Shown: piece by piece, positions 2,716 to 32,919 of the stretch | How the letters are laid out: every line of letters begins with the position of its first letter | Numbering within the stretch: position 1 is the stretch's first letter | Assembly (NCBI RefSeq): GCF_041886205.1 | Contig: NZ_CP169029.1 | Strand: one strand, 5' to 3' | DNA: 64,000 nucleotides | DNA from: Escherichia coli | Lineage (GTDB): Bacteria > Pseudomonadota > Gammaproteobacteria > Enterobacterales > Enterobacteriaceae | The notes under the pieces: generated by a model | What the model was told of the DNA's origin: nothing | The model's database searches: none | Seen by the model: the letters and a program-made list of their open reading frames with translations, nothing else | Translations under genes and position numbers: made by a program

Positions 2716-3306
2716 TTATATGTCAGGTGTCTGAAGTTTTGCTTTGGCTCTTAAAATGGTTTGCCGCGAGGTTTTGAATTCCCGGGCAATGGCACTTATA
2801 CTTACACCTGACTTAATTCGTTCGAATACCACCTGTTTCTGTTCTTCATTTAACACAGGTGGTCGACCAAAACGTTTCCCTGCGCCGCGGGCTCTTACTA
2901 TCCCGGAATGAGTGCGTTCAAGTAAAAGGTCTCGTTCAAATTCAGCGACTGCTGAAATTACTTGCATCATCATTTTTCCTGTTGGACTGGTCAGGTCAAT
3001 GCCACCCAATGCTAAGCAATGCACTCTGATACCTGTTTCGGTCAGTTGTTCCACTGTTTTCCTGATATCCATTGCATTACAACCAAGGCGATCCAGTTTT
3101 GTCACAATCAATTGATCACCACATTTCAGGCGAGCAAGCAACCGGTTAAAACCAGGACGCTCACTGGTTGCTGCTGAGCCGCTAATGTGTTCTTCGATTA
3201 TTTGCTGAGGTTTGATTTTAAAACCTGCACTTTCGATTTCCCGGCGTTGATTTTCGGTGGTCTGATCCAGCGTTGATATCCGACAGTAAGCAAAAATTCG
3301 AGACAT
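2716..3306 (-). CDS. pinQ: Serine recombinase / DNA invertase (Pin/Hin/Gin family, 196 aa)
   Basis: N-terminal resolvase fold [15 protein letters not shown] with catalytic Ser context, C-terminal HTH; convergent with stf-tfa. Confidence 0.9.
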
Positions 3307-30044: not shown

Positions 30045-30803
30045 TTACTCCGTACGGCGGGCAACAATAAAAAGACGCGGAAATGCCAGCAGTATCTGTC
30101 CGTTCTCTTGCAGTGGATACTGCTCTTCCAGCATCTGATGGTAGCGCGTAAGAAAAAGCTGCTGTTCGCTCTCGGTCAGATCCTGTAACCACGGACGTAA
30201 TCCAGTGGCGGTCACCCAATCGATAATCGCCTGGTGCGACGGCATCTGGTGATAGTAGGTGGTTCGCCAGATATCGACCTCACATCCGGCTTCGCTCAAA
30301 ATATCGTAGTAAGCATGAACGCCAGCCAACGGCTCACGCCCGCGATCCGGGTAGTTTTGTTCCCAGGCAACTTCGCGCATGAGCACATGGGTCGGCTCCA
30401 GCCAGTTATCTGGCATCTGTACTGCCAGCACGCCCTGCGGATTAAGTAAAGAAACCAAGTGAGGAAACAATTCGTAGTGGTCGGGCAGCCATTGCAGTGA
30501 GGCATTAGCAAAAATCAGATCGAGTGCCTGTTCCGGTTGCCAGTTGCGGATGTCTGCTTCCACGAACTGGCAGTCTGGCAAAGCACTGCGCGCTTCAGCA
30601 ATCATCGCCGGAGACGAGTCGATGCCTGTTATCCTGGCCGCAGGCCAACGTTGATGCAGCAGGGCGGTGCTGTTACCTGGGCCACAGCCAAGATCGGCAA
30701 CGTATTTGATATTCTCCAGCGGCACTCTGGCAAGCAGCTCCACCGCCGGACGCGATCGTTCAGCGGCAAAGTGCAGATATAAAGAGGGGTTCCAGTCAGA
30801 CAT
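30045..30803 (-). CDS. tam: trans-Aconitate 2-methyltransferase (252 aa)
   Basis: SAM-dependent methyltransferase motif [10 protein letters not shown]. Confidence 0.9.
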
Positions 30804-32606
30804 TTATTTACTCCCGTCAGCGCGTTACCCCAATTGTAGATAAAACTGTTGACATCCTCCACGCCCTGAATGACGAGGATCCTGCTACGTTCAGGCTGTC
30901 GCCTGAATCATTTCGGTGGGTTCCTGCTTCAACGGGCGGCCTGACTGCACCATCCCTCCACAGGCAAGAACGGCGTGCCCCGCCGCTAAAATGTTACGAG
31001 CGCCATTTACATCGGCGTTCGCTGTATATCCACATACCTGGCATCTGAATTTACTTTGTGACAGGCGGTTCTCTTTCGCTGTATGACCACAGTACGCGCA
31101 ACGCTGGCTTGTATACGCTGGCGGAACAGCAAGCACCTGACCGCCACGCCAGAGCTGCTTGTACTCAAGCTGGCGGCGCATTTCATACCAGCCCTGATCC
31201 AGTATCGAACGGTTTAAACCTGATTTTGCCCGGACATTGCGCCCCGGCTGGCTGACCGTACCCGCTGCTGACTTTGACATGTTGCTGACCTTCAAATCCT
31301 CAATGACTATCATTGCGTGGTTTTTGCTGACGGTCGTTGTGACTTTGTGAAGGTAGTCCCTGCGGATATTTGCGATACGGGAATGCAGTCGCTGTATTTT
31401 GCGTTTCTGCTTCTGCCAGTTGTTGCTGAATTTGACCTTGCGGCTTAACTGTCGCTGAAGTCTCGCCAGCTTCTTCTGGTTTTTCTGAAAACTGTTTACA
31501 GGCTCAAAGACTGTACCATCTGACAGCGTGGCGAGTTTAGCCACGCCAGCATCCAGCCCGATCATTGATGCTGAAGGGTGAACCGGAGTTGATACTTCAC
31601 TTTCTGTCTGAATACTGATGTGCCACTTACCGCAGGACTGGCTGACCGTGACATTTTTCACAACACCCGTGACCTGACGGCTATTCCGGTAGCGCATCCA
31701 GCCCAGTTTCGGCAGAAAAATACGGCTGTTTTCCTGATCGAGCTTAACGCCCTGCGGGTAGCGGAATGCATCATTCTGTCCCCGCTTTTTGAATCGGGGA
31801 AAAGCAGCCCGCTTCTGGAAGAAGTTTTTGTAAGCCCGCTCAAGGTCTTTCAGTGACTGTTGCAATGGCTGTGACGGGGCATCTTTAAGCCATTGCGTTT
31901 CAGTGGCATTTTTCCACTCAACCAGCCAGGAAGCCATTTTCCCGTAAGGGATGTATTTATTACCGGCCTCATGATTCTCATTCTGACGTGCCAGAGCACG
32001 ATTGAAAACGAAACGACATGCGCCTGCGAAGCGCCTCATTTCACGCTCCTGTTGACCACCGGGTCTTAACTGGAATTTAAATGCCTGTAGTCGTTTCACA
32101 GGTCAAATTATATTTTGGTCTGTGAAAAAAGAAACCGATATCCGGCGTGGAAGGCATTGTGTTTTCCTGAAGCATGTTCACATGGTCTTTGTCACCAAAT
32201 ACCGACGCCAGATTTTTGACCATGACGCGACAGAAAAACTACGCACTTACTTTTCAAATGTATGTGCTGATTTTGAAGCTGAACTGGTTGAAATGGATGG
32301 CGAACCAGATCACGTCCATTTGTTAATTAACTATCCTCCCAAACTGGCGATATCCAGTCTGATAAACAGCCTCAAAAGCGTATCGGGTAGGTTACTGCGA
32401 CGAGATCGACCAGATATTGCAGTCAGGTATTACTACAAAGGCGTTTTGTGGAGTCCTGGCTATTTTGCCAGTAGCTGCGGAGGTGCGCCAATATCCGTCA
32501 TCCGCCAATACATTGAACAACAGCAAACACCTGGTCAGGTGGAAAACCGCGCCTTATATCCCCGCCCTGAAGGACGGGGTTTTACGGCGCACCGGATAAA
32601 TTCGCC
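30804..32606. mobile_element. IS200/IS605-family insertion sequence with divergent tnpB and tnpA between tam and lsrG; ends approximate
   Basis: Y1 HuH transposase gene and TnpB gene back to back (starts 22 bp apart), occupying the whole 1.8-kb interval between tam and lsrG; imperfect hairpins at both ends. Confidence 0.8.
30891..32099 (-). CDS. tnpB: TnpB (IS605 OrfB), RuvC-like RNA-guided nuclease, 402 aa, apparently intact
   Basis: RuvC-I (IGLDAGV), RuvC-II ([13 protein letters not shown]), zinc finger (CAYCGH...[18 protein letters not shown]) all present, no internal stops. Confidence 0.9.
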
Positions 32607-32688
32607 TCACGGCATCAACCCATTGAACAGACGTTTTTTACGCGGCCCGGTCATTAAAGATTCCAGTTTCGCGACACAGGTTTTGTAG
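32122..32688 (+). CDS. tnpA: TnpA, IS200-type Y1 (HuH) transposase; C-terminal extent uncertain (ORF runs to 188 aa and overlaps the lsrG 3' end)
   Basis: HuH motif (HVHLLINY) and tyrosine-containing C-terminal region (YIEQQ); typical family members are about 140-155 aa. Confidence 0.8.
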
Positions 32689-32894
32689 TGGGGCGTGGTT
32701 TTATGGAACGCCACTGCGTCTTCATCTTTATAGGCTTCGTAGATATAAAAGCGCGAATTCACTTCCGGGTCCTGTAAGACATCGAAGCGCAAATTGCCTT
32801 CTTCCTGTACAGAGCCCAGGTGGTTCTGGCGAAAAACTTCGATAAACTCGTCAACCTTGTCTTCATGAACGTTAATTTCAACCAGTGTGACGTG
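32607..32894 (-). CDS. lsrG: (4S)-4-hydroxy-5-phosphonooxypentane-2,3-dione isomerase (96 aa)
   Basis: ABM-domain ORF starting [10 protein letters not shown]; last gene of the lsr operon. Confidence 0.9.
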
Positions 32895-32919
32895 CATGTT
32901 TCTTCTCCTTAATCCGCAG

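Follow-up and report, generated by a model that had tools for sequence, protein, structure and literature searches.

Introduction

Insertion sequences of the IS200/IS605 family are defined by subterminal hairpins at both ends in place of terminal inverted repeats and by insertion next to a target that is not duplicated. Their transposase, TnpA, has a Y1_Tnp domain with an HUH motif and a catalytic tyrosine, and the product of an accessory gene, tnpB, carries OrfB_IS605 and zinc-ribbon/TNB domains. An autonomous copy has a tnpA gene with a normal start and stop and a product of 138 or 143 aa. In IS608, tnpA and tnpB run in the same direction and the right end finishes with TCAA, as does that of the IS609 copy described below; the terminal helix of IS608 TnpA, which bears the tyrosine, must move during catalysis. 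IS609 itself is annotated in Escherichia coli K-12 MG1655 as a 1,748-bp stretch ('insertion sequence:IS609') with a pseudogene, yncK (tnpA), and insQ (tnpB), and in the O157:H7 copy of IS609 tnpA is annotated as intact, with a product of 143 aa (WP_000604943.1).

We analyzed an IS609 copy in a stretch of E. coli DNA of 64,000 nt (contig NZ_CP169029.1 of assembly GCF_041886205.1), referred to here as the window. A first-pass annotation of this DNA had noted that the transposase frame stays open beyond the usual end of such proteins, through the hairpin at the end of the element and into lsrG. It had proposed that either the stop codon of the transposase was lost, possibly leaving a non-functional extension, or the element ends further right than assumed.

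Results

Boundaries and target of the IS609 copy

The element and its immediate surroundings are as follows.

30849..32595, minus strand: IS609 copy, IS200/IS605 family, 1,747 bp, delimited from seven loci that carry the element and from the empty site in K-12; the left end of the element is at the right in the window
32596..32599, minus strand: TTAT target abutting the left end, without duplication; found at 7/7 loci, and once in the K-12 empty site
32607..32897, minus strand: lsrG, intact, 96 aa, ending in TGA (32607-32609), with the last 27 codons antisense to the tnpA run-on

The window copy is 98.2% identical to the annotated K-12 element, with which it shares both ends, and 97.2-98.4% identical to sampled E. 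coli copies at other loci. Seven insertion loci were compared (tam-lsrG, ytfB-TetR, ydcL-ydcO, yfeD-gltX, yedK-ybcM, yeaQ-DUF1869 and yidH-glucosidase). On the tnpA side, similarity among the copies always stops at ...GCGCACCGG (window 32595); the next bases are ATAA, read as TTAT in the orientation of the element. On the tnpB side the element starts with TTGACATCC (window 30849), and thus ends ...GATGTCAA. The empty site of K-12 reads ...TTTAT|CAATTTTATC... and the window ...TTTAT|IS|CAGTTTTATC..., that is, a clean insertion with no duplication and one flank SNP. A small rearrangement at the empty site, considered at one stage, was dropped, as the re-registered alignment gave only the clean insertion and this SNP. 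Insertion 3' of TTAT without duplication, together with high identity to a named element, places the copy in the IS200/IS605 family.

The left end of IS609 at 32595 is separated from the lsrG stop codon by 11 bp, and the TTAT target is 6 bp beyond that codon. lsrG is the 291-nt gene that is annotated in K-12 and in a genome 100% identical to the window over 2.2 kb. lsrG and tam, which flank the element here (window 30801-32609), are 56 bp apart in K-12, and the insertion adds 1.75 kb between them. tnpB has the same orientation as the lsr operon and lies 45 nt upstream of the tam start.

Hairpins at the element ends

No terminal inverted repeats are present, and subterminal hairpins are found at both ends, the right-end one being weakened in the window copy.

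32560..32579, no strand assigned: left-end subterminal hairpin CCCCGCCC-TGAA-GGACGGGG, which folds well as DNA and as RNA
30849..30890, minus strand: right end of IS609, finishing ...GATGTCAA, with its subterminal hairpin weakened in the window copy
32528..32541, no strand assigned: small palindrome CACCTGGTCAGGTG, with the mutated first base of the stop codon in its loop

In other IS609 copies, the right-end hairpin is CCACGTCC-TTCA-GGGCGTGG, the mirror of the left-end hairpin. The window copy has two changes in the stem, also present in the gltX and yeaQ copies, and a 1-nt deletion private to copies at the lsrG locus. The weakened hairpin may impair recognition of the element in cis or the scaffold of the TnpB guide RNA.

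The small palindrome at 32528-32541, in the left end, is predicted to form a separate 5-bp hairpin in single-stranded DNA. The left-end hairpin was considered as an intrinsic terminator, which the pattern scan did not support (only 4 T). A search against Rfam gave sub-threshold matches only, at the 3' end of tnpB (window 30836-30964, minus strand: HgcC, 23.6 bits, E 0.01; RAGATH-18, 28.1 bits, E 0.016); they span the end of that gene as well as the right end of the element, the expected place of the TnpB guide (omega) RNA.

The tnpA reading frame and its catalytic body

In the list of open reading frames of the window, tnpA is a plus-strand frame of 188 aa that starts with GTG at 32122 and ends with a TAG at 32688. 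It passes through the left-end hairpin (32560-32579) and enters lsrG, as the first-pass annotation had seen. The overlap with lsrG given there, 27 codons, also holds (32607-32688, 82 nt). The run-on that it had put at about 40 codons does exist, but comprises 50 (residues 139-188).

32122..32535, plus strand: canonical body of tnpA, counting 138 codons from the GTG; HUH motif (H64, H66) and Tyr130 present
32107..32109, plus strand: ATT at the position of the annotated IS609 tnpA ATG start, from alignment with the O157 copy; also found in the yedK and ytfB copies

The body is that of a Y1 transposase: Pfam Y1_Tnp matches residues 14-134 (E 1.2e-40), and H64-V65-H66 and Y130 are invariant across the alignment of TnpA proteins. 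The ATT at 32107 need not abolish initiation. A start may be retained, because in the alignment the 138-aa homologues have their Met1 at the position of the GTG at 32122. Four residues (M22K, L26M, V86I and G91S in GTG numbering) set the window TnpA apart from nearly every other sampled copy, M22K being also found in one database cluster. An AlphaFold model built on an alignment of 28 sequences had low confidence throughout (mean pLDDT 42.6), too poor for judging the tail.

The ancestral stop codon was lost by one substitution

The codon at which the canonical body would end differs between copies.

32536..32538, plus strand: CAG in place of the ancestral TAG stop codon (T to C), from comparison with the O157 IS609 and a Salmonella relative

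At the codon aligned with 32536-32538, the O157:H7 copy has TAG and the window copy CAG. A relative from Salmonella (85% protein identity) has TAG at the corresponding codon; because it does, TAG is the ancestral state and CAG the derived one. The TnpA homologues of Salmonella, Proteus, Photorhabdus, Klebsiella, Yersinia, Xenorhabdus and Arsenophonus all share the C-terminal ending ...QQQTP[G/S/D] and are 138 aa long, or 143/146 aa where an upstream start is called, so that in these other genera the stop falls after residue 138. The solved Y1 transposases (Sulfolobus, 2F4F and 2EC2; IS608, 2A6M; ISDra2, 2XM3) align with residues 6-140 of the window TnpA and end there, their ends matching its residues 135-140. 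We conclude that a single T-to-C substitution at 32536-32538 is the cause of the open frame, and the first of the two proposals of the first-pass annotation is confirmed, both by the homologues and by the other copies of the element, among which the O157 copy keeps TAG and copies at several loci have CAG.

We found no evidence contradicting the loss of the stop codon: the outgroups do have the stop, and no copies at other loci match the window past 32595. A run of 50 sense codons after the lost stop is not statistically unusual (estimated as (61/64)^49, about 0.1). Annotation pipelines already flag the stop-less frame as a pseudogene. Literature searches on IS609 with tnpA or TnpB, and on yncK, gave no discussion of this stop loss, the yncK search being swamped by unrelated matches.

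Composition of the C-terminal tail

The 50 extra residues have two sources, 20 coming from the left end of the element and 30 from flanking DNA.

32539..32595, plus strand: element-coded part of the tail, in the left end of IS609; with the CAG at 32536-32538 it gives residues 139-158, 20 residues
32596..32688, plus strand: flank-coded part of the tail, 30 codons and the TAG stop at 32686-32688; locus-specific

Residue 159 is derived from the TTAT target and residues 160-188 from the DNA beyond it. Close relatives from E. coli in the protein database vary between 152 and 254 aa in total; they have the element-coded part of the tail in common and then diverge by insertion site. Homologues of the same length with a conserved tail, which would have refuted the reading of the first-pass annotation, were not what we found, since only 20-21 element-coded residues are common before the sequence becomes locus-specific and lengths vary. 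The tail is attached to the terminal helix, which carries the catalytic Tyr130 8 residues before it. It is a by-product and not a domain, and probably non-functional baggage. In practice, gene callers will report many "long transposases" (152-254 aa) that owe their tails to nothing but flanking DNA.

Constraint on tnpA and tnpB

tnpB lies directly upstream of tnpA in divergent orientation.

30891..32099, minus strand: tnpB (InsQ/TnpB RNA-guided endonuclease), intact, 402 aa, with HTH_OrfB_IS605, OrfB_IS605 and Cas12f1-like TNB domains (Pfam)

The mean pairwise pN/pS among 13 sampled copies is 0.76 for tnpA and 0.23 for tnpB, figures that come from few substitutions in recombining sequences and that support relaxed constraint on tnpA without proving it. 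Compared with its nearest haplotypes, the window tnpA has 5-6 nonsynonymous changes and 0 synonymous ones. Of the fully sampled loci, all but one have a full-length tnpB, the exception having a truncated right end, and at the sampled loci the tnpA adjoining an intact tnpB carries the stop loss, internal stops or frameshifts. These patterns suggest that tnpA is under relaxed constraint and drifting towards inactivity and that tnpB is kept by selection.

As to the non-functional extension that the first-pass annotation thought possible, loss of function of the extended TnpA is plausible because constraint is relaxed and the gene is annotated as a pseudogene; the loss itself is a prediction. Against it stand the intact HUH motif and catalytic tyrosine in a frame that is otherwise open, and the fact that CAG is the commoner allele, present at many loci.

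All testable defining features of the IS200/IS605 family are present in the window copy, including TnpA with Y1_Tnp, HUH and the catalytic tyrosine and an accessory TnpB with its OrfB_IS605 and TNB domains. The features of an autonomous copy are absent, tnpA having ATT at 32107 and CAG at 32536 in place of the normal start and stop of a gene for a 138/143-aa product.

The CAG allele across E. coli

The exact 48-mer is found with CAG in 4,010 E. coli records and with TAG in 1,256; 3,059 of 4,315 records contain no copy with the exact TAG 48-mer. Most E. coli genomes that bear IS609 are thus without a copy in which tnpA has its ancestral stop, whereas their tnpB remains intact and under constraint. 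PGAP labels CAG copies as pseudogenes ('missing C-terminus') at the lsrG, gltX, ydcL, yedK and ytfB loci, and a copy 100% identical to the window tnpA is given the same label.

The insertion next to lsrG is rare: its junction, detected with a junction-specific 96-mer, is present in 34 of 5,426 complete E. coli genomes, with TAG in none of the 34. Strains wlxctx60 and ET201 carry this insertion. In all, the 5,426 genomes contain roughly 8,600 IS609 tnpA 3' ends. An earlier count of 519 genomes with the insertion, obtained with a 2.2-kb query, was set aside as misleading, given that a full IS copy elsewhere in a genome nearly reaches 80% coverage. Strain 6EVA has another haplotype at the lsrG locus, in which tnpA is frameshifted and has internal stops.

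Both alleles occur at the same loci, namely gltX within O157:H7, yedK and ytfB. At gltX in O157:H7, PV15-279 has CAG and TR01 has TAG, though the TR01 copy contains N bases and assembly quality may contribute to this difference. The copies at ytfB, gltX, yedK, ydcL, yeaQ and yidH are mosaics of shared haplotype blocks in which linked differences match copies at other loci. The mosaic pattern indicates frequent gene conversion between IS609 copies. Recurrent point mutation appears less likely as the source of both alleles at one locus, since each allele is accompanied by such linked blocks. Given this pattern, the presence of CAG at many loci is by itself not proof that CAG elements have transposed.

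K-12 yncK (positions 2719-3150 of the K-12 stretch, L006) has CAG and in addition an internal stop (…VSGR-stop-LRRD…). This internal stop recurs in the other copies at the ydcL locus (UMNF18 and EC16) and, in strain 504211, in the copy at yedK.

Discussion

A single-base loss of the stop codon, in an insertion sequence already described, accounts for the odd 188-codon frame, which in itself matters little: the long frame is ordinary transposase decay. The locus is an IS609 copy with a stop-loss tnpA, very probably a decaying transposase gene whose tail is run-on into the 3' end of lsrG. IS609, with its divergent tnpA and tnpB, inserted once, without target duplication, 3' of TTAT between lsrG and tam. 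The ancestral TAG of tnpA was lost by the single T-to-C change that gave CAG at 32536-32538. The loss of the stop, the ends and target of the element, the two-part origin of the tail and the frequency of the allele in the population are direct observations. Translation, if any, would cross 20 codons of the left end, including the subterminal hairpin, and would then run through the TTAT target and 29 flank codons, 27 of them antisense to lsrG, to a chance TAG at 32686. The tnpA of this lineage presumably drifts as a pseudogene, to which the window copy would have added ATT and several private amino-acid changes, and tnpB is probably retained by selection. The CAG allele, finally, may have spread to many loci at least partly via gene conversion between copies. 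A fully dead CAG allele at many loci would in any case need gene conversion or mobilisation in trans.

The extended TnpA could instead still be an active transposase that tolerates its tail, CAG-allele copies being autonomous. We consider this unlikely. Such activity would explain the presence of the allele at many loci (4,010 records and at least five loci, lsrG, ydcL, gltX, yedK and ytfB), and the catalytic motifs are intact. However, Tyr130 is only 8 residues from the natural C terminus, and the terminal helix on which it sits, mobile during catalysis in IS608 TnpA, carries the tail. The pN/pS of tnpA (0.76) and the further lesions, internal stops and frameshifts, of many CAG copies also argue against activity, and the mosaic haplotypes point to gene conversion, which can spread an allele without transposition.

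A similarly small chance is left for the idea that the stop loss serves as an off-switch, with tnpA mRNA ending at the left-end hairpin and the TTTT that follows (32560-32583) before any stop codon, and its product being degraded after tmRNA tagging. A stable hairpin with UUUUA behind it does lie between the old stop, 22 nt away, and the next stop in frame, but the site, with only four T, fails the criteria of the terminator-like scan. Silencing of this kind would be a speculative consequence of the stop loss and no substitute for it as an explanation.

Somewhat less probable still is a reading in which CAG, in place of the textbook TAG, is the prevailing state of IS609 tnpA in E. coli and perhaps a working state, not a decaying one. 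TnpA would then either have a C terminus templated by the left end and the local flank, or be subject to built-in non-stop-mRNA silencing at the left-end hairpin, with TnpB retained.

It is improbable, to a further degree, that the convergent overlap of tnpA and lsrG affects expression of the lsr operon through transcriptional or antisense interference, a consequence also raised in the first-pass annotation. The reading frames do overlap in antisense over 82 nt, but an overlap of frames says nothing about transcripts. In a pattern scan, the roughly 500 nt upstream of tnpA contained no promoter-like sites, and the count of such sites equals that expected by chance. The 1.75 kb placed between lsrG and tam would be the larger effect, and it is independent of the stop loss.

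The other proposal of the first-pass annotation, an element end further right that would make the longer frame the true full-length gene, can be dismissed, for only the open frame itself speaks for it, whereas the copies at six other loci cease to resemble the window beyond 32595 and TTAT, the K-12 empty site joins exactly at the 30849/32595 ends, the annotated IS609 of K-12 shares these ends, and the DNA beyond them is the 3' end of lsrG, also present in IS-free genomes.

Comparison with known systems

With the stop-loss explanation in place, the closest relatives of the window element are the IS609 copies of K-12 (yncK, insQ) and O157:H7, which have the same ends, divergent tnpA and tnpB and a TTAT-adjacent left end, at about 98% nucleotide identity. 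The K-12 copy has CAG at the stop position, as in the window, and, unlike the window copy, an extra internal stop. The O157 copy at the ytfB locus keeps both ATG and TAG and is intact at 143 aa, whereas the window copy has ATT and CAG, the M22K, L26M, V86I and G91S changes and a weakened right-end hairpin.

More distantly, the TnpA proteins of IS608 (Helicobacter pylori) and ISDra2 (Deinococcus) are homologous over residues 6-140 of the window protein (E 6e-19 and 8e-16, respectively). The window IS609 resembles these elements in the HUH motif and C-terminal tyrosine, in the subterminal hairpins and in insertion 3' of a tetranucleotide without duplication. It differs in its target, which is TTAT as against TTAC or TTGAT, and in the 50-aa non-homologous tail, which IS608 and ISDra2 TnpA do not have. 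Its tnpA and tnpB are divergent, as in IS605, and not codirectional as in IS608.

The window IS609 is also like those IS200/IS605 elements that retain TnpB beside a transposase pseudogene: at every sampled locus tnpA is damaged or relaxed, and tnpB is both intact and under constraint. In contrast to those pseudogenes, the window tnpA is undeleted, and the principal damage to it is one stop-loss substitution, after which a long frame stays open. An intact tnpB beside a decaying tnpA is in line with the general view that TnpB outlives its transposase.
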